Part shown: positions 2,737 through 59,805 of the stretch, in pieces
How the letters are laid out: the number at the start of each line of letters is the position of its first letter
Numbering within the stretch: position 1 is the first letter of the stretch
Origin: Eledone cirrhosa
Lineage: Eukaryota
NCBI GenBank assembly: GCA_964016885.1
Contig: OZ024743.1
Span: forward strand, 259,408,001-259,472,000
Reading direction: 5' to 3'
Length of the DNA: 64,000 bases
Made by a program: the position numbers and the translations under genes
Notes under the pieces: model-generated
Databases searched by the model: none
What the model was told of the DNA's origin: nothing
The model's input: the letters and a program-made list of their open reading frames with translations, nothing else

Positions 2737-2838
2737 AATGAAGTAATTCCATCGGAAAAGTCCAGGAAAAAAGAGTGCTCTATGTAAGCAACAGAGCTTA
2801 ATTATTATTATTATGTAATAAACAACATAAGGCAATTA

Positions 2839-2898
2839 TTCCATTTACCAGTGGTTTCTTAAAAGCAAAAGGTTTTGCTTTCAATCCTCAGAATGAAA
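2839..2898 (-). ncRNA. Type I hammerhead ribozyme (inverted pLTR copy)
   Basis: Reverse complement of 8587-8646. Confidence 0.85.
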
Positions 2899-3112
2899 AA
2901 TCCTGGTTTGTTTATTGAATATGGATTCTAAAAACGAAAATGCAATCTATATGAAAGTGAGGCTGGAAAAGGGAGAAGGAAAGGAAAAATAAAATAAAAT
3001 AAAACTACACATGCAAACACACACAAAAAAAACCCAAAAGCATACTTACACACACACACACATATATATACACATATAATTTGCACGCATACACACATAC
3101 ACATACATATAC

Positions 3113-3163
<51 letters not shown>

Positions 3164-3823
3164 TATATACATACATACACATACACACACATATATATAT
3201 ATAAAAAGAGCGTACACCTACACACACATACACATATATATACACACATATACACATACATATATTCATACATACACACGCACACACACACACACACACA
3301 TATATACACACACACATACATATATATACACATGTACATATCCATACATATATATATATATATACATATATACACATACATATACACACATGTACACATA
3401 TACATACACACACACACACACACACACACATGTGTGTGTACAAGCCTACACATACACACACACATATATATACACACACACACATATACATACATTCACA
3501 CAAACATACAACGTACATACATACACATACATGAATGCACTCCACTACATATTAACACACGCAAATAAAAAATATATAAATAATATTAACAAATATTTGA
3601 CAGCGATACATGCCCCAGCTAACAGGACAGACACGCGTGGTAAGTAATACACACATAAGCGCATATACATACGTTCGAAATAGTAAACACATACACACAC
3701 TCTCACACATAAATATACATATACAAATACATAAACACGTACATACACATACATACGCAAACACGTACACGTATACAATATAAACACACACATGTATATG
3801 TAATTATATACACACACACACAC

Positions 3824-3884
<61 letters not shown>

Positions 3885-4343
3885 CAAAAATATAAAAATA
3901 TAAACGCACACACACATATATAAATACGTAAACACACATATACATACATAGCTAAACAATTATACACATGCAAATACGTATATATCAAAAGAACGCACAA
4001 CCAAATACAAACACACATACATATATACACACACACACACCCACACACAAACCCACACATACATAAAAATAAATAAAAACACACGCAACATATACATACA
4101 TACACGTACATATACACATATACATATATACACATACATATATACATATACACATACATATACACAAATATATACATACATATATATATATACACACGCA
4201 CACGCACACATACACACATGCATACACATACACACACACATATACATGTGTGTATGTGTAAAGCTCAGTATTAGATAAGACAAATGAACCTTACATAAAC
4301 GTATATATAGTAGTAAAGTAATAAAGCCATACAAGGCAATTAA

Positions 4344-4401
4344 TCCATTCACCAGAGGTTTCTTAAAAGCAAAAAAAGTTTCCTTCAATCTTCAGAATGA
4401 A
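4344..4401 (-). ncRNA. Divergent hammerhead motif (GUG), inverted pLTR copy
   Basis: Reverse complement of 7081-7138. Confidence 0.7.
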
Positions 4402-4443
4402 ATATACAAATATATACACACATACAGACACGCACACACACAC

Positions 4444-4488
<45 letters not shown>

Positions 4489-4735
4489 TACACATATATA
4501 TATATATATATATACAGACATATACACACACATACACACACATACATATACATACATACATACACATATATATACATACACAAACATATACGTACACATA
4601 TACATATATACACACAAAAAAACATACACATACACATAGGTATGTGAAGGGCAAAACAAAAAGAATATATGGGGTGGGGGGCCTAGAGGAGGTAAAAATA
4701 TAAAGGGAGGTAAGGGGGAAAAAAAATATTTTTTA

Positions 4736-6688
4736 AAATATCCACCTAGAATTAAAGACATGGCCAACTTCGAATTAGACCTCGTTAATCTAATTAGTGA
4801 TATCAAATTTCGTAAGTACATTAATAATTTTCAAACTAAACTTTCTCACGATATCTCTAATTTTAGAAATTCTACAAACACTTTTGTTCTTTCTGATAAA
4901 ACCAAAAACCTCTTTGAAGTTAATAGTAATTTGTATAACCAACTTTTAACTAATAGTATTACCAATAAATATCAATTAACTAATAATAATACCTACAATA
5001 CTATCAATAAAGAAGCTAAAGAACTAGCTAGTTCTTTACAAATAGATAACCGGATTGAAAGCTTAGCTAAGCGTAAAGCATATATTACCCTTAAAGACCA
5101 TAAATTGGACTTTACTAATCGACCTAGTTGTAGACTGATTAACCCGGCTAAATCCGAGGTTGGCCTTGCTAGTAAGAAAATCTTAAGAAAAATAATTATC
5201 CAAATTAGAACTAACACTGTCCTTTCACAGTGGCTAAATACTTCCTCTGTTATTTCTTGGTTCAATAATATACAAGGTAAAAATAAGTGTAGATTTACAC
5301 AATTTGATATTGTCGATTTTTACCCTTCTATTACCGTTTCCTTATTAACTAAAGCCTTAGATTTTGCAAGACCCTTCATTAATATCTCCAAATTAGAAGA
5401 GGACATTATCTTTCATGCCAGAAAAACTTTACTTTTTACTAATGATAAGATTTGGGTTAAAAAGTCAAACCCTGAAAACTCCTTCGATGTTGCAATGGGT
5501 TCTTATGACAGTGCGGATGTGTGCGACTTAGTAGGATTATTCCTTCTCCACACACTCAAAGAGAAATTTCCGTCCCATAATATCGGTTTATACCGTGATG
5601 ACGGATTAGCAGTTTCTCATACCACCAATGGCCATAATCTTGATAAATTCCGTAAAGATTTAATTAGTACCTTTGCTAATCTTAACCTTAAAATTACTAT
5701 AGATACGAACCTTACTAATGCTAACTTTCTTGATATTAATCTTGATCTACTTACTGCCTCTTTTAAACCCTATCATAAACCTAATGAAAATCTTAGGTAT
5801 ATACACAAAGAGTCTTGCCATCCCCCTATAGTTTTTAAAAATCTTATTCCTAACATTAGCCGTAGGATTTCTACTTTATCTTCGTCTATAGACATTTTTA
5901 ATAAAGCCGCCCCTTATTATAATAAAGCCCTTAAGAACAGCGGTTTTACAGAAAATATTTCTTATTTACCTATTCCCCCCCCTAAAACTAACCATAATAA
6001 CAGGAAAAGGAAGATTATTTGGTTCACACCCCCCTTCTCTCTAAATGTCAAAACTAATGTAGGAAGGAAATTCCTTGAACTATTAGACAAACATTTTCCT
6101 CCTATTCATAGATATTATAAGATTTTTAATAGGAATGTAGTTAAGATCAGCTACTCTTGTTGTCCATCCATGAAATCCAAAATCACAAGTTCAAAACGTA
6201 CGAGGATAAATCCAGGATGCAGTTGCAGGAAGCCGGATGAATGCCCATTGCAGGGTAAATGTAAAACAAAATCTGTCGTTTATGAGGCTAAAATAACGCC
6301 AGTTATCAACAACCAGCCAGCCAGAAGCGAGCGATATGTCGGTATGACCCAGGACAGGTTTAAAACCAGATTTTACTCACATGTCGCTTCTTTTAAACAC
6401 TCAGATAAACGAACATCAACGGCCCTCGCAAGTAAGGTATGGGATCTCAAGGATAGTAATATCCCGTACTCTATTGATTGGTCTATATTAGACCATTCGA
6501 GGGAGTACCAAAGGGGCACAAAGAATTGTTCTTTGTGTACCACTGAAAAGTATAGGATCTTGCTAAACTTGAGAGACACTTCCGCTTGCCTTAACTCTAA
6601 GACTGAGATCTTCAGATGCTGTCCTCATCTGAAATCGCATCTGATCTGTAACTGGATTGACACTCCTACGATAAATCAACCGCCTTGA
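4736..6688 (+). CDS. 5'-truncated second copy of the PLE ORF (lacks first ~60 codons; in-frame ATG at 4760 gives 642 aa)
   Basis: Translation identical to residues 69-710 of the 8866-10998 ORF. Identity begins at AAATA 4736 = 9046. Confidence 0.9.
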   Translation, partial: KYPPRIKDMANFELDLVNLISDIKFRKYINNFQTKLSHDISNFRNSTNTFVLSDKTKNLFEVNSNLYNQLLTNSITNKYQLTNNNTYNTINKEAKELASSLQIDNRIESLAKRKAYITLKDHKLDFTNRPSCRLINPAKSEVGLASKKILRKIIIQIRTNTVLSQWLNTSSVISWFNNIQGKNKCRFTQFDIVDFYPSITVSLLTKALDFARPFINISKLEEDIIFHARKTLLFTNDKIWVKKSNPENSFDVAMGSYDSADVCDLVGLFLLHTLKEKFPSHNIGLYRDDGLAVSHTTNGHNLDKFRKDLISTFANLNLKITIDTNLTNANFLDINLDLLTASFKPYHKPNENLRYIHKESCHPPIVFKNLIPNISRRISTLSSSIDIFNKAAPYYNKALKNSGFTENISYLPIPPPKTNHNNRKRKIIWFTPPFSLNVKTNVGRKFLELLDKHFPPIHRYYKIFNRNVVKISYSCCPSMKSKITSSKRTRINPGCSCRKPDECPLQGKCKTKSVVYEAKITPVINNQPARSERYVGMTQDRFKTRFYSHVASFKHSDKRTSTALASKVWDLKDSNIPYSIDWSILDHSREYQRGTKNCSLCTTEKYRILLNLRDTSACLNSKTEIFRCCPHLKSHLICNWIDTPTINQPP

Positions 6689-7080
6689 ACTCCTTCTCTG
6701 CTCTTTACTTTTGCTACGGCTTTTATTTTGCTGCTTCTACCTTCTGTACTCTTGTTTTTAAAAAATATTTTTTTTCCCCCTTACCTCCCTTTATATTTTT
6801 ACCTCCTCTAGGCCCCCCACCCCATATATTCTTTTTGTTTTGCCCTTCACATACCTATGTGTATGTGTATGTTTTTTTGTGTGTATATATGTATATGTGT
6901 ACGTATATGTTTGTGTATGTATATATATGTGTATGTATGTATGTATATGTATGTGTGTGTATGTGTGTGTATATGTCTGTATATATATATATATATATAT
7001 GTGTATGTACATATATATATATATGTATATATATATATGTGTGTGTGTGCGTGTCTGTATGTGTGTATATATTTGTATAT

Positions 7081-7138
7081 TTCATTCTGAAGATTGAAGG
7101 AAACTTTTTTTGCTTTTAAGAAACCTCTGGTGAATGGA
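7081..7138 (+). ncRNA. Second, divergent hammerhead motif with GUG at the cleavage triplet
   Basis: ttcatt-CTGAAGA-ttgaagg...cttttaa-GAAA-cctctgg-TG-aatgga. Paralog of 8587-8646, including the downstream aattgcctt..ttattac. Confidence 0.7.
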
Positions 7139-7597
7139 TTAATTGCCTTGTATGGCTTTATTACTTTACTACTATATATACGTTTATGTAAGGTTCATTT
7201 GTCTTATCTAATACTGAGCTTTACACATACACACATGTATATGTGTGTGTGTATGTGTATGCATGTGTGTATGTGTGCGTGTGCGTGTGTATATATATAT
7301 ATGTATGTATATATTTGTGTATATGTATGTGTATATGTATATATGTATGTGTATATATGTATATGTGTATATGTACGTGTATGTATGTATATGTTGCGTG
7401 TGTTTTTATTTATTTTTATGTATGTGTGGGTTTGTGTGTGGGTGTGTGTGTGTGTATATATGTATGTGTGTTTGTATTTGGTTGTGCGTTCTTTTGATAT
7501 ATACGTATTTGCATGTGTATAATTGTTTAGCTATGTATGTATATGTGTGTTTACGTATTTATATATGTGTGTGTGCGTTTATATTTTTATATTTTTG

Positions 7598-7658
<61 letters not shown>

Positions 7659-8318
7659 GTGTGTGTGTGTGTATATAATTACATATACATGTGTGTGTTT
7701 ATATTGTATACGTGTACGTGTTTGCGTATGTATGTGTATGTACGTGTTTATGTATTTGTATATGTATATTTATGTGTGAGAGTGTGTGTATGTGTTTACT
7801 ATTTCGAACGTATGTATATGCGCTTATGTGTGTATTACTTACCACGCGTGTCTGTCCTGTTAGCTGGGGCATGTATCGCTGTCAAATATTTGTTAATATT
7901 ATTTATATATTTTTTATTTGCGTGTGTTAATATGTAGTGGAGTGCATTCATGTATGTGTATGTATGTACGTTGTATGTTTGTGTGAATGTATGTATATGT
8001 GTGTGTGTGTATATATATGTGTGTGTGTATGTGTAGGCTTGTACACACACATGTGTGTGTGTGTGTGTGTGTGTGTATGTATATGTGTACATGTGTGTAT
8101 ATGTATGTGTATATATGTATATATATATATATATGTATGGATATGTACATGTGTATATATATGTATGTGTGTGTGTATATATGTGTGTGTGTGTGTGTGT
8201 GCGTGTGTATGTATGAATATATGTATGTGTATATGTGTGTATATATATGTGTATGTGTGTGTAGGTGTACGCTCTTTTTATATATATATATGTGTGTGTA
8301 TGTGTATGTATGTATATA

Positions 8319-8371
<53 letters not shown>

Positions 8372-8586
8372 GTATATGTATGTGTATGTGTGTATGCGTG
8401 CAAATTATATGTGTATATATATGTGTGTGTGTGTGTAAGTATGCTTTTGGGTTTTTTTTTGTGTGTGTTTGCATGTGTAGTTTTATTTTATTTTATTTTT
8501 CCTTTCCTTCTCCCTTTTCCAGCCTCACTTTCATATAGATTGCATTTTCGTTTTTAGAATCCATATTCAATAAACAAACCAGGATT

Positions 8587-8646
8587 TTTCATTCTGAGGA
8601 TTGAAAGCAAAACCTTTTGCTTTTAAGAAACCACTGGTAAATGGAA
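8587..8646 (+). ncRNA. Type I hammerhead ribozyme, intact core, predicted cleavage after GUA (A8639)
   Basis: Stem I tttcatt/aatggaa; CTGAGGA; stem II ttgaaagcaaaa/ttttgcttttaa; GAAA; short stem III cc-act-gg; TA. Confidence 0.85.
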
Positions 8647-8865
8647 TAATTGCCTTATGTTGTTTATTACATAATAATAATAATTAAGCTCTGTTGCTTA
8701 CATAGAGCACTCTTTTTTCCTGGACTTTTCCGATGGAATTACTTCATTTATACAGCTCCAACCGGGATTGATCGCAGCATATTCGATATTACATATACGA
8801 TTGGCACTTTCCAGCCCGTTTAGTTGAGCACTCTACAGTTTTCAGGAATTTAACCAACATACACC

Positions 8866-10998
8866 ATGGACCTTTATGATTTGGATTATTCTATCAAAAA
8901 CATACCCACTCCTTCCAACACAACATACACCAAAATCCTCATTGATAAAATCGAGCAAGTCGTTAAAAGAATGAGATGGAAGGCAATGGTTTACGATGGA
9001 CTATTCAGTGCTGATACTAAAGATAATTTTGACATTAAATCCCGTAAATATCCACCTAGAATTAAAGACATGGCCAACTTCGAATTAGACCTCGTTAATC
9101 TAATTAGTGATATCAAATTTCGTAAGTACATTAATAATTTTCAAACTAAACTTTCTCACGATATCTCTAATTTTAGAAATTCTACAAACACTTTTGTTCT
9201 TTCTGATAAAACCAAAAACCTCTTTGAAGTTAATAGTAATTTGTATAACCAACTTTTAACTAATAGTATTACCAATAAATATCAATTAACTAATAATAAT
9301 ACCTACAATACTATCAATAAAGAAGCTAAAGAACTAGCTAGTTCTTTACAAATAGATAACCGGATTGAAAGCTTAGCTAAGCGTAAAGCATATATTACCC
9401 TTAAAGACCATAAATTGGACTTTACTAATCGACCTAGTTGTAGACTGATTAACCCGGCTAAATCCGAGGTTGGCCTTGCTAGTAAGAAAATCTTAAGAAA
9501 AATAATTATCCAAATTAGAACTAACACTGTCCTTTCACAGTGGCTAAATACTTCCTCTGTTATTTCTTGGTTCAATAATATACAAGGTAAAAATAAGTGT
9601 AGATTTACACAATTTGATATTGTCGATTTTTACCCTTCTATTACCGTTTCCTTATTAACTAAAGCCTTAGATTTTGCAAGACCCTTCATTAATATCTCCA
9701 AATTAGAAGAGGACATTATCTTTCATGCCAGAAAAACTTTACTTTTTACTAATGATAAGATTTGGGTTAAAAAGTCAAACCCTGAAAACTCCTTCGATGT
9801 TGCAATGGGTTCTTATGACAGTGCGGATGTGTGCGACTTAGTAGGATTATTCCTTCTCCACACACTCAAAGAGAAATTTCCGTCCCATAATATCGGTTTA
9901 TACCGTGATGACGGATTAGCAGTTTCTCATACCACCAATGGCCATAATCTTGATAAATTCCGTAAAGATTTAATTAGTACCTTTGCTAATCTTAACCTTA
10001 AAATTACTATAGATACGAACCTTACTAATGCTAACTTTCTTGATATTAATCTTGATCTACTTACTGCCTCTTTTAAACCCTATCATAAACCTAATGAAAA
10101 TCTTAGGTATATACACAAAGAGTCTTGCCATCCCCCTATAGTTTTTAAAAATCTTATTCCTAACATTAGCCGTAGGATTTCTACTTTATCTTCGTCTATA
10201 GACATTTTTAATAAAGCCGCCCCTTATTATAATAAAGCCCTTAAGAACAGCGGTTTTACAGAAAATATTTCTTATTTACCTATTCCCCCCCCTAAAACTA
10301 ACCATAATAACAGGAAAAGGAAGATTATTTGGTTCACACCCCCCTTCTCTCTAAATGTCAAAACTAATGTAGGAAGGAAATTCCTTGAACTATTAGACAA
10401 ACATTTTCCTCCTATTCATAGATATTATAAGATTTTTAATAGGAATGTAGTTAAGATCAGCTACTCTTGTTGTCCATCCATGAAATCCAAAATCACAAGT
10501 TCAAAACGTACGAGGATAAATCCAGGATGCAGTTGCAGGAAGCCGGATGAATGCCCATTGCAGGGTAAATGTAAAACAAAATCTGTCGTTTATGAGGCTA
10601 AAATAACGCCAGTTATCAACAACCAGCCAGCCAGAAGCGAGCGATATGTCGGTATGACCCAGGACAGGTTTAAAACCAGATTTTACTCACATGTCGCTTC
10701 TTTTAAACACTCAGATAAACGAACATCAACGGCCCTCGCAAGTAAGGTATGGGATCTCAAGGATAGTAATATCCCGTACTCTATTGATTGGTCTATATTA
10801 GACCATTCGAGGGAGTACCAAAGGGGCACAAAGAATTGTTCTTTGTGTACCACTGAAAAGTATAGGATCTTGCTAAACTTGAGAGACACTTCCGCTTGCC
10901 TTAACTCTAAGACTGAGATCTTCAGATGCTGTCCTCATCTGAAATCGCATCTGATCTGTAACTGGATTGACACTCCTACGATAAATCAACCGCCTTGA
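8866..10998 (+). CDS. Intact 710-aa PLE polyprotein: reverse transcriptase + Cys linker + GIY-YIG endonuclease
   Basis: N-terminal SIKNIP...RMRWKA and SDKT; RT motifs QFDIVDFYPSI, AMGSYDS, LYRDDG, NFLDINL; linker CSC..CPLQGKC; endonuclease VVY...YVGMT..F..R..H; C-terminal CSLC..E...CPH. No stops or frameshifts. Naiad assignment is from recalled family motifs. Confidence 0.95.
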   Translation: MDLYDLDYSIKNIPTPSNTTYTKILIDKIEQVVKRMRWKAMVYDGLFSADTKDNFDIKSRKYPPRIKDMANFELDLVNLISDIKFRKYINNFQTKLSHDISNFRNSTNTFVLSDKTKNLFEVNSNLYNQLLTNSITNKYQLTNNNTYNTINKEAKELASSLQIDNRIESLAKRKAYITLKDHKLDFTNRPSCRLINPAKSEVGLASKKILRKIIIQIRTNTVLSQWLNTSSVISWFNNIQGKNKCRFTQFDIVDFYPSITVSLLTKALDFARPFINISKLEEDIIFHARKTLLFTNDKIWVKKSNPENSFDVAMGSYDSADVCDLVGLFLLHTLKEKFPSHNIGLYRDDGLAVSHTTNGHNLDKFRKDLISTFANLNLKITIDTNLTNANFLDINLDLLTASFKPYHKPNENLRYIHKESCHPPIVFKNLIPNISRRISTLSSSIDIFNKAAPYYNKALKNSGFTENISYLPIPPPKTNHNNRKRKIIWFTPPFSLNVKTNVGRKFLELLDKHFPPIHRYYKIFNRNVVKISYSCCPSMKSKITSSKRTRINPGCSCRKPDECPLQGKCKTKSVVYEAKITPVINNQPARSERYVGMTQDRFKTRFYSHVASFKHSDKRTSTALASKVWDLKDSNIPYSIDWSILDHSREYQRGTKNCSLCTTEKYRILLNLRDTSACLNSKTEIFRCCPHLKSHLICNWIDTPTINQPP

Positions 10999-11390
10999 AC
11001 TCCTTCTCTGCTCTTTACTTTTGCTACGGCTTTTATTTTGCTGCTTCTACCTTCTGTACTCTTGTTTTTAAAAAATATTTTTTTTCCCCCTTACCTCCCT
11101 TTATATTTTTACCTCCTCTAGGCCCCCCACCCCATATATTCTTTTTGTTTTGCCCTTCACATACCTATGTGTATGTGTATGTTTTTTTGTGTGTATATAT
11201 GTATATGTGTACGTATATGTTTGTGTATGTATATATATGTGTATGTATGTATGTATATGTATGTGTGTGTATGTGTGTGTATATGTCTGTATATATATAT
11301 ATATATATATGTGTATGTACATATATATATATATGTATATATATATATGTGTGTGTGTGCGTGTCTGTATGTGTGTATATATTTGTATAT

Positions 11391-11448
11391 TTCATTCTGA
11401 AGATTGAAGGAAACTTTTTTTGCTTTTAAGAAACCTCTGGTGAATGGA
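11391..11448 (+). ncRNA. Divergent hammerhead motif (GUG), terminal pLTR copy
   Basis: Identical to 7081-7138. Confidence 0.7.
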
Positions 11449-11907
11449 TTAATTGCCTTGTATGGCTTTATTACTTTACTACTATATATACGTTTATGTA
11501 AGGTTCATTTGTCTTATCTAATACTGAGCTTTACACATACACACATGTATATGTGTGTGTGTATGTGTATGCATGTGTGTATGTGTGCGTGTGCGTGTGT
11601 ATATATATATATGTATGTATATATTTGTGTATATGTATGTGTATATGTATATATGTATGTGTATATATGTATATGTGTATATGTACGTGTATGTATGTAT
11701 ATGTTGCGTGTGTTTTTATTTATTTTTATGTATGTGTGGGTTTGTGTGTGGGTGTGTGTGTGTGTATATATGTATGTGTGTTTGTATTTGGTTGTGCGTT
11801 CTTTTGATATATACGTATTTGCATGTGTATAATTGTTTAGCTATGTATGTATATGTGTGTTTACGTATTTATATATGTGTGTGTGCGTTTATATTTTTAT
11901 ATTTTTG

Positions 11908-11966
<59 letters not shown>

Positions 11967-12626
11967 GTGTGTGTGTGTGTATATAATTACATATACATGT
12001 GTGTGTTTATATTGTATACGTGTACGTGTTTGCGTATGTATGTGTATGTACGTGTTTATGTATTTGTATATGTATATTTATGTGTGAGAGTGTGTGTATG
12101 TGTTTACTATTTCGAACGTATGTATATGCGCTTATGTGTGTATTACTTACCACGCGTGTCTGTCCTGTTAGCTGGGGCATGTATCGCTGTCAAATATTTG
12201 TTAATATTATTTATATATTTTTTATTTGCGTGTGTTAATATGTAGTGGAGTGCATTCATGTATGTGTATGTATGTACGTTGTATGTTTGTGTGAATGTAT
12301 GTATATGTGTGTGTGTGTATATATATGTGTGTGTGTATGTGTAGGCTTGTACACACACATGTGTGTGTGTGTGTGTGTGTGTGTATGTATATGTGTACAT
12401 GTGTGTATATGTATGTGTATATATGTATATATATATATATATGTATGGATATGTACATGTGTATATATATGTATGTGTGTGTGTATATATGTGTGTGTGT
12501 GTGTGTGTGCGTGTGTATGTATGAATATATGTATGTGTATATGTGTGTATATATATGTGTATGTGTGTGTAGGTGTACGCTCTTTTTATATATATATATG
12601 TGTGTGTATGTGTATGTATGTATATA

Positions 12627-12677
<51 letters not shown>

Positions 12678-12891
12678 GTATATGTATGTGTATGTGTGTA
12701 TGCGTGCAAATTATATGTGTATATATATGTGTGTGTGTGTGTAAGTATGCTTTTGGGTTTTTTTTGTGTGTGTTTGCATGTGTAGTTTTATTTTATTTTA
12801 TTTTTCCTTTCCTTCTCCCTTTTCCAGCCTCACTTTCATATAGATTGCATTTTCGTTTTTAGAATCCATATTCAATAAACAAACCAGGATT

Positions 12892-12951
12892 TTTCATTCT
12901 GAGGATTGAAAGCAAAACCTTTTGCTTTTAAGAAACCACTGGTAAATGGAA
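12892..12951 (+). ncRNA. Type I hammerhead ribozyme (terminal pLTR copy), cleavage after A12944
   Basis: Identical to 8587-8646. Confidence 0.85.
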
Positions 12952-12984
12952 TAATTGCCTTATGTTGTTTATTACATAATAATA

Positions 12985-13018
<34 letters not shown>

Positions 13019-13266: not shown

Positions 13267-13836
13267 TGTAAGTATGTATGTATACGTACATACATATATG
13301 TATACAGACGTACAGTAGCATGCATATATATATATATACATATATACATATACATACAGGTACACATACATATATGTACGTATCAGTTTAGCGGACGCTT
13401 ATTATAGCACCCGCTTTGTTCGTTTGTAAACAAACTGAACAGCCTGAATTTATGCCGCACGGTGTTAAGGCAACCACGTCACCTTTTTGTTCAACACTGA
13501 CACAGGAACGATGTACTAGTTTCAAGCTTGTTAGCTATCATCAGCACCGTATACCCATCTGCCAGATAGTTGAACGTTCGAAAGTATATACTTTCCTTAT
13601 GAAAATTAACGGCTGAGCAGCCTAATTTGCATATCGGGCGGCATAAATTCAGGCTGTTCAGTTTGTTTACAAACGAACAAAGCGGGCGCTATAATAAGCG
13701 TCCGCTAAACTGATACGTACATATATGTATGTGTACCTGTATGTGTACCTGTATGTATATGTATATATGTATATATATATATGCATGCTACTGTACGTCT
13801 GTATACATATATGTATGTACGTATACATACATACTT

Positions 13837-34602: not shown

Positions 34603-35017
34603 TATTATAAATAATTGTTTCTACTTTTGGCACAAGGCCAGCAATTATCCCAGTGTATTTCTGATACTTTATTTTATCGACCCTGTAAAATAAAGTACCA
34701 TATATTATAAATAATTGTTTCTACTTTAGGCACAGGGCAAGCAATTACCCAGTGCATTACGGGTACTTTATTTTATCGACCCCGTAAGGATGAAAGGCAA
34801 AGTCAACCTCAGCGGGATTTGAACTCATATTATAAATAATTGTTTCTACTATTGGCACAAGGCCAGCAAATTACCCAGTACATTACTGGTACTTTATTTT
34901 ATCGACCCCGTAAGGATGAAAGGCAAAGTTAACCTCGGCGGGATTTGAACTCAGAATGGCAAGGGCCGTAACTCTATGCGTCAAAGCATGGCGTCCGACC
35001 CTCTACCGATACTGCCA
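34603..35017 (-). mobile_element. Cluster of three partial tandem tRNA-derived SINE copies (MetaSINE-like core)
   Basis: Repeated ataattgtttctac..ggcacaaggccagcaatt..ggtactttattttatcgaccccgtaaggatgaaaggcaaagt. Minus-strand B box gagttcaaatccc. Confidence 0.8.
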
Positions 35018-58971: not shown

Positions 58972-59441
58972 GAACATAGTCTAAACAACAACCAACAAGA
59001 ACAACAACAATCAGCAACAACAACCTAAAAAAACCAATAACACCAATAACATCATGATCATCAAACACAGCTGAAACAACGTCAACAATAATAACATAGT
59101 CTGGTATATATTTACTTTCGCAGTTTCATTCGAATTGCATTAATAACTTGTTGATATCTTAATCATGTTTACAGTAATGGCATACGATAATTGCATTGTT
59201 GAGGATGGCAATCATGATGATGATAATGATAATTATGATGAGGATCATGATGATTATGACGACGACGACGATGATGATGATGATGAGGATGATGTGGTGG
59301 TGGTTGCGATGATGTTGTTGCTGACCATTATAATTATTGCAATGATAACGACGATATCTTAACTATAATTAAAGAAGGTCTGCGGGATTGCGTCCAGAAT
59401 ACATGTTTTTACCCCGTTTGTAAAGTAAGTTGGATTACTTT

Positions 59442-59805
59442 AATAAATAATTGTTTCTACTTTTGGCACAAGGCCAACAATTATTCCAGTGTATTACTGG
59501 TACTTTGTTTTATCGACCCCGTAAGGATGAAAGGCAAAGTTAACCTCGGCGGGATTTGAACTCAGTCTGTAAAGGGACGTAACTGTGCTGCAAAGCGTGG
59601 CGTCCGACCCTCTACCGATACAGGCCAATCCACTGCCCTTTTATAAATAATTGTTTCTACTTTAGGCACAAGGCCAGCAATTACCCAGTGCATTACTGGT
59701 ACTTTATTTTATCGACCCCGTAAGGATGAAAGGCAAAGTCAACCTCGGCGAGATTTGAACTCAGATCGTAAAGGGACGTAACTATGCTGGAAAGCATGGC
59801 GTCCA
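59442..59805 (-). mobile_element. Two head-to-tail young SINE copies
   Basis: Near-identical ~200-bp units, same family as 34603-35017 and 62385-62575. Confidence 0.85.

Follow-up and report, generated by a model that had tools for sequence, protein, structure and literature searches.

Paired GUG and GUA hammerheads in the pLTR of a Hydra-clade Penelope-like element from Eledone cirrhosa: uncuttable helper or captured relic end?

Why should a retrotransposon carry, in each of its pLTRs, two paralogous type I hammerheads of which one has a GUA and the other a GUG cleavage triplet? The question is raised by a Penelope-like element (PLE) in a 64,000-nucleotide stretch of the Eledone cirrhosa assembly GCA_964016885.1 (contig OZ024743.1, positions 259,408,001 to 259,472,000, forward strand), referred to below as the window. 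The upstream motif (U, GUG) and the downstream motif (D, GUA) lie 1,448 nt apart. A preliminary description had proposed that U may be a helper, stabilising stem III so that the RNA is cut only once per unit. Much of the literature used here (PMC8557442, PMC4209133, PMC7229834, bioRxiv 10.64898/2026.07.22.740005, PMC6431247, PMC3138052, PMC11167929 and PMC6765202) is cited from portions of the text, and statements resting on these sources apply to those portions.

Identity of the element

The pair sits in a single PLE insertion (2737–12987) that reads, in order, as an inverted pLTR, a 5'-truncated ORF, a pLTR, an intact 710-aa ORF and a final pLTR, with a unit period of 4,310 nt (~4.31 kb). 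The inverted pLTR copy (2737–4738, minus strand; U at 4401–4344 and D at 2897–2840) ends in (AT)n with a long tail, the truncated ORF (4736–6688, plus strand) covers residues 65–714 at 100% identity, and the right pLTR copy (10999–12987, plus strand; U at 11391–11448 and D at 12893–12950) ends in (TA)n 43 nt past the D cut site. The inverted and direct arms meet through a short AAAT microhomology at 4736–4738. As the three pLTRs are 99.3–99.9% identical, with differences confined to the lengths of repeat runs, we count them as a single observation.

The intact ORF (8866–10998, plus strand) encodes a reverse transcriptase with YRDD followed by C-terminal GIY-YIG-type nuclease motifs. It contains RWK (R41 W42 K43), DKT (D118 K119 T120) instead of DKG, a CxCx5C linker (C559, C561, C567) and, near the nuclease end, CxxC (C662–C665) and CxH (C693–H695), which replace CCHH. 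Homologues numbered 1,507 among 8,000 scored candidates, the best being 59% identical, and in an alignment with 49 of them YRDD (350–353), Y580, Y598, G600, R609 and H613 were invariant. One homologue with PF01541 (P0003) aligns through the nuclease region at 42%; direct Pfam support for the nuclease was weak (1 of 49 members, E 0.014). A PDB sequence search gave no matches, and neither a single-protein metagenome scan nor a viral scan found relatives. The Hydra clade is defined by RWK, DKT, the CxCx5C linker, a C-terminal nuclease and insertion into (TA)n, and its elements are generally <3 kb, although this is not a strict criterion (PMC8557442). Both ends of the insertion join (AT)n runs, in keeping with the (TA)n target feature, and the unit, at 4,310 nt, is longer than 3 kb. 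Judged by its protein motifs and its (TA)n target, the window element is a Hydra-clade PLE, and the PLE context given in the preliminary description is correct. An identity as a Naiad was dropped, Naiads having an N-terminal nuclease and DKA.

The nearest listed family, on a comparison made by eye alone, is Hydra-1_Obim from octopus (PMC8557442). The family and its clade have in common with the window element RWK, DKT, CxCx5C, CxxC with CxH, the (TA)n target and a type I hammerhead with a palindromic stem III, which in Hydra-1_Obim is ACCA-A-UGGU (File S2 of PMC8557442); the tandem and inverted layout is also the same. The window element differs from the clade in its 4.31-kb unit, in a 2.2-kb microsatellite-bearing stretch from ORF to ORF and in the second, GUG hammerhead, and its stems I and II differ, by eye, in sequence from those of Hydra-1_Obim.

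Several other repeats were seen in the window. An unrelated type I hammerhead (13500–13551, minus strand; CUGAUGA, ACUAGU, A at the site) lies 550 nt beyond the element inside an inverted-repeat arrangement of ~400 nt (13345–13760) and is probably a remnant of another PLE. Tandem arrays at 34702–34977 and 59438–59804, with 126- and 199-nt units, have a common conserved core and are likely to be a dispersed SINE-type repeat.

The two hammerheads and their surroundings

Hammerhead D (8587–8646, plus strand) has a 7-bp stem I (8587–8593/8640–8646), CUGAGGA at 8594–8600, an 11-bp stem II and the triplet GUA at 8637–8639, with a predicted cut after 8639. CUGANGA, GAAA, three stems and an NUH site, the features of a type I hammerhead, were all found in D, without a G10.1–C11.1 pair, and D is likely to be a working hammerhead as predicted from these features. 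Hammerhead U (7080–7139, plus strand) has all 11 core positions intact, a stem I (7080–7086/7133–7138) of which both strands are the same as in D, CUGAAGA at 7087–7093, a 7-bp stem II and GAAA. Its triplet, GUG at 7130–7132, lies outside the NUH class, and NUG triplets are not cleaved (PMC3138052), a point on which the preliminary description was right. The positions it had given for two paralogous motifs in each pLTR, and its account of U as keeping CUGANGA, GAAA and stem I with a GUG triplet and of D as canonical, agree with our direct reading, with the proviso that the three copies amount to one insertion.

The two motifs align with 83% identity across 88 nt, the aligned part starting at the first base of stem I and extending ~26 nt beyond the motif, and an 18-nt head common to both occurs six times in the window against 0.03 expected, a count reached in none of 100 shuffles. 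Stem III, given earlier as very short in both, is indeed short in both but is not equivalent: taken from A15.1–U16.1 it forms a palindrome around one base in D (ACCA-C-UGGU), whereas in U it reads ACC-UCU-GGU, the palindrome being broken by the T at 7126. At three of the U/D differences, position 17 included, U has G and D has A; one idea is that these might derive from A-to-I editing fixed by reverse transcription. Rfam gave no match to U or D in the window at the gathering score, and its 88 matches at E≤10 were microsatellite-driven and of miRNA type, with no hammerhead family among them. Identification of the hammerheads was thus by a custom descriptor, not Rfam, and this descriptor allows any base at position 17. 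Hammerhead positions are numbered in the established manner.

The spacer (7139–8586, plus strand) is mostly a compound (TA)/(TG) microsatellite with 27 TG blocks and 2 CA blocks, and a further microsatellite (6856–7079, plus strand) separates the 3' UTR from U. The length of 1.45 kb given earlier for the spacer holds, but its description as microsatellite throughout does not, since it contains unique islands and an intron-like stretch. The whole of 6856–8586 is strongly strand-biased (32 TG blocks and 2 CA blocks); several host tracts are mixed. The plain reading of this bias is expansion from one seed. The U tail (7139–7180, plus strand) is homologous to the D tail up to 7164 and contains a TA run (7173–7180) 40 nt after the would-be cut site. 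The unique stretch that follows (7181–7234, plus strand) is repeated in public contigs, with diverged variants; homology to the Hydra hairpin was considered for it and rejected, there being no significant match and the best score being equalled by 20% of background windows.

The intron-like stretch of 88 nt (8435–8522, plus strand), a predicted intron running from GTAAGT to a pyrimidine tract and CAG, ends 65 nt before D and resembles the short 5' UTR intron of Penelope. It is the sole match to its pattern on both strands of the window, copies also being present at 12741–12827 and 3049–2963, and a second acceptor-like site ends at 6811. A clade-wide intron upstream of the hammerhead was rejected, the pattern occurring in 6 of 59 cases and, on the reverse strand, in 5 of 59.

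Downstream of D, the GCTC...GAGCAC hairpin of the Hydra clade (8688–8710, plus strand) begins 48 nt past the cut site and the short element end falls just 5' of it. A second pair of hairpin arms (8755–8831, plus strand; GCTC arm at 8755, GAGCAC arm at 8826–8831) precedes the ATG, with the long (tail) end just 5'. The right end of the window element falls 43 nt past the D site, before the first hairpin, and its left end just before the second GCTC arm; both ends map to the D tail and none to the U tail.

U and D among relatives and in public contigs

The 49-homologue alignment was used to fetch 77 metagenome loci (from the best 80 of 328 confirmed) and 13 loci from genome bins. The descriptor gave 89 hammerhead matches in 62 of these 90 loci, 66 of them distinct, and at position 17 the latter have A (45), C (14) or U (7) and in no case G. 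When the stem III segment was paired with its own copy there were at most two mismatches in 65 of the 66, compared with one for D and three for U. Likewise, File S2 of PMC8557442, in the portion available, gives one hammerhead per Hydra family and none with G at the site. A hammerhead lies downstream of 48 of 82 ORF ends (median distance to the first, 141 nt; range 77–534), and each of the ten closed ORF-to-ORF junctions (278–396 nt) has one hammerhead. The window element has two within ~2.2 kb, U at about +400 and D at about +1,900 from the ORF end. The relatives are mostly short contigs, prone to break in microsatellite-rich pLTRs, and this sample is biased against window-like layouts.

The GCTC...GAGCAC hairpin lies 36–61 nt after the site in 48 of the 66 distinct tails (48 nt in D). 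Of the 22 rows that have a TA run, 10 show the junction 31–54 nt after the cleavage site (U, 40 nt; D, 43 nt); the TA junctions of the relatives fall just before the hairpin or before its second copy near the ATG. The hairpin may mark the two points at which reverse transcription starts and by which the tail is delimited; the Hydra section of PMC8557442, as available, makes no mention of it. Thirteen loci (L078–L090) are Hydra-like retroelement contigs in bacterial genome bins and are most likely contamination from animal hosts.

The conservation of H17 and of the stem III palindrome bears on the possibility that cleavage is minor for both motifs, and that their fold or sequence serves as a binding site for reverse transcriptase or as a 3'-end signal, U being tolerated or acting as a weak second signal. 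Catalytic mutants left in vitro insertion unaffected and no RNA ends were found at the site for an anole PLE (PMC11167929), and PLE hammerheads are slow even as dimers (PMC4209133), all of which would fit such a role. Retention of H17 in 66 of 66 relatives and of the palindrome in 65 of 66 points, however, to selection on dimeric cleavage in the clade, and it is to the D tail, never that of U, that the ends of the window element map. We consider this explanation improbable.

The two-hammerhead pLTR is a real but uncommon architecture in a known clade. Non-LTR retrozymes (PMC7229834; bioRxiv 10.64898/2026.07.22.740005) also have tandem type I hammerheads and are related to PLE pLTRs, but their repeats are non-coding, measure 150–450 nt and have an active motif apiece, whereas the window has an autonomous coding element with motifs 1.5 kb apart, one of them cuttable; by this comparison the window pair is not a non-LTR retrozyme. 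Terminons (PMC6431247) resemble it in having host DNA between PLE ends and chained hammerhead ends, but are EN-minus elements of telomeres, with lengths of tens of kb. A GUG/GUA hammerhead pair in a pLTR was not found described in the literature searched, which covered few subscription papers.

Four of 14 sequencing runs were compared against 7062–7234, with 186, 21, 2 and 0 contigs matching, and 18 of the 209 pieces were listed. Differences from the contigs were listed only at ~31 nt or more from a contig end, which places 7132 outside that coverage. In organism A, exact contigs cover 7080–7138 (depth 1,083) and 7109–7184 (depth 1,274), both spanning G17, where word depth is not copy number and the run is possibly close to the source of the window itself. 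Exact U was also present in organism B over 7109–7184 at a depth of 12, and another contig of that organism has a D-type 3' half leading into the stretch downstream of U, position 17 falling outside the displayed part. The run with two contigs gave one D-type and one unrelated partial match and no U-type; neither this run nor the one without contigs is evidence of absence. In the contigs of these two organisms U is, as far as can be read from them, a repeated and fixed part of the family. The stretch downstream of U also occurs in variant form, with 7 and 10 differing letters over ~65–70 nt, which indicates that the U arrangement, or the family from which it came, is older than the window subfamily. 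For the 3' half of the motif common to U and D the summed depth approaches 150,000 and the loose ends are D-type, so that D-like ends far outnumber U, a difference for which 5' truncation alone could account. In organism A the D-like ends over 7104–7139 are about a hundredfold deeper than U and occur as several variants, one ending in (CT)n; the D-like ends of this organism make up a large family of short ends that bear a hammerhead.

Both a helper and a relic would be expected to show fixation of G17. Word shares cannot be converted to divergence, and the exact match to U in organism B therefore does not prove constraint. U and D differ at 7–9 of the 59 ribozyme positions and at 5 of the 26 tail positions (Fisher p 0.50–0.75, a small sample), so there is no excess conservation of the hammerhead part of U. 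The check suggested earlier, whether the GUG copy is conserved across the family and its relatives, comes out positive to the extent that G17 recurs in two organisms, and negative in that it occurs in none of the 66 relatives and that the excess conservation is lacking.

Folding of the pair and the origin of U

A short palindromic stem III requires dimers (PMC4209133, PMC6466107, PMC6765202), as the preliminary description had recognized; its further statement that such dimers cleave efficiently was too strong, activity being low even then (PMC4209133). The two copies of a double hammerhead have a merged stem III (PMC4209133, PMC6466107), and we infer from this topology that each core cuts the site of its partner; with this strand swap, U would be the enzyme for the D site. 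The dimeric hammerheads of PLEs, the newt satellite and ASBVd (PMC4209133, PMC6466107) have, like D, a short palindromic stem III, and a D–D dimer forms in silico, but they are equal cleavable copies, whereas the window pair includes one NUG, non-palindromic copy. Abundant single truncated hammerhead motifs have also been described (PMC4209133).

The helper idea can accordingly be put as an asymmetric double hammerhead, in which the catalytic strand of U cuts the GUA of D, the D core faces an uncuttable GUG, the spacer is looped out and retained, and one cut is achieved without a second pLTR. All folding was by a secondary-structure model without tertiary terms. A nested U–D dimer can be drawn, which gains 5.6 kcal/mol over two monomers (6.1 for D–D). 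The intact core and stem I of U, the fixation of G17 in a form repeated in two organisms and the start of U/D homology exactly at stem I are also in its favour. The U–D cross-helix is possible but degraded, with 7 pairs around a 2x2 loop at -7.0 kcal/mol (8 pairs at -8.2 for D–D). Stem III, which would carry the cut, loses its fourth pair through the change at 7126. When the motifs were isolated with A-linkers, the D–D dimer lay 0–0.4 kcal/mol above the MFE (P 0.02–0.09) and the U–D dimer 5.9 kcal/mol above it (P about 6e-6), the U–D MFE being a misfold in which the 3' strand of U stem II captures the 5' strand of D stem II. In sequence context, inter-ribozyme pairs had P of at most 0.006 and the U–D dimer lay 9.0–10.3 kcal/mol above the MFE, although with costs of 9.0 kcal/mol for U–D, 8.5 for D–D and 0.9 for the D monomer the in-context model cannot separate the partners.

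The suggestion that the spacer brings the pair together fared unevenly. Its dimer cost of 9.0 kcal/mol is well below the 17–21 kcal/mol of three non-microsatellite controls, a point for the asymmetric pair, but of two host microsatellites one gave 9.5 kcal/mol, about the same, and the other 18.5. The spacer folds more stably than shuffles (z -9); a special ability to join its ends was rejected, the 6 exterior steps comparing with 4–21 in 12 shuffles and 8–17 in five controls. Splicing, which would leave U and D ~110 nt apart, was likewise rejected as a promoter of the dimer, the cost in the spliced model being 13.3, a value that counts against the asymmetric pair. With the broken palindrome, the preference for a misfold and the lack of excess conservation of the ribozyme part, the idea of U as a tuned helper is not supported; nor is a helper needed for one cut per unit, as a single hammerhead per pLTR suffices at all ten closed junctions of the relatives, none of which has such a pair. 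We regard the asymmetric double hammerhead as unlikely, and slightly more doubtful still the stronger claim that U is a natural enzyme-only hammerhead that cuts a neighbour 1.5 kb away while itself uncut, with a TG-biased microsatellite as folding tether.

The misfold itself suggests a different role, in which U would lower D cleavage as a decoy: by taking up the 5' stem II strand of D with its own 3' stem II strand, it would let full-length template survive. The 3' strand of U stem II is identical to that of D, the isolated U–D MFE is a cross-paired stem II, and in vitro a PLE has been reported to use mainly uncut RNA as substrate (PMC11167929). In context, however, D stem II forms with P 0.64–0.995 and U pairs elsewhere, and any duplicate would cross-pair likewise; we think a decoy very improbable.

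Our preferred explanation, which we consider probable rather than secure, is that U derives from the 3' end of an older sister subfamily, captured and inactivated, and is now carried inside a Hydra-clade pLTR. PLEs insert beside existing copies and can carry host DNA (PMC6765202, PMC6431247), and reverse-transcription starts have been placed at tail ends (PMC11167929). As Hydra elements insert into (TA)n, their ends would accumulate side by side; a transcript might then extend from an old end through its host flank to a D-type end of more recent date, and the entire segment would become fixed as a 2.2-kb pLTR once reverse transcription had started from the D tail. Cleavage by an active U would sever the template 1.5 kb before this start and so part the ORF from it, which means that full-length spread would be open only to a lineage with a dead U, all of whose copies would owe G17 to one master copy. 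For D, the partner in a double hammerhead would be the D in the next pLTR, an arrangement already proposed for other PLEs. Alternatively, U might have arrived as a short 5'-truncated insertion into the microsatellite, with the same outcome.

Capture of a relic end is consistent with the appearance of U, which has lost A17 and the palindrome, is without the hairpin and has a TA run at 40 nt, and so looks like an old short end; its tail and TA run would be the join between this end and the (TA)n target. Also in its favour are two relatives (L082 and L089) in which several PLE families have their ends stacked at TA runs, and the organism B contig that joins a D-type 3' half to the U downstream stretch. 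Against it, stem I is the exact point at which U/D homology sets in, and nothing of the D upstream flank is recognizable, the 3' UTR before U matching the D upstream region at chance level only (12% of local shuffles). This boundary is not predicted by plain 3' capture and is better accommodated by a truncated insertion or by selection on the fold. The core and stem I of U are also intact, so that cross-pairing is possible, and no sign of ongoing decay of U was seen among the 18 of 209 contig pieces listed.

The two main readings differ in what the pair would mean. Were U a helper, it would represent a division of labour between two natural hammerheads, of which we found no description in the literature searched, and an asymmetric pair would free a retrotransposon from needing a tandem copy for 3'-end processing. 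D–D, U–D and D alone provide a natural and cheap test set. If U is a relic, the locus would be a snapshot of PLE terminal repeats growing by swallowing old ends together with target microsatellite, and would hint at intolerance of an active hammerhead in an internal position, a point relevant to whether cleavage by PLE hammerheads takes place in vivo.
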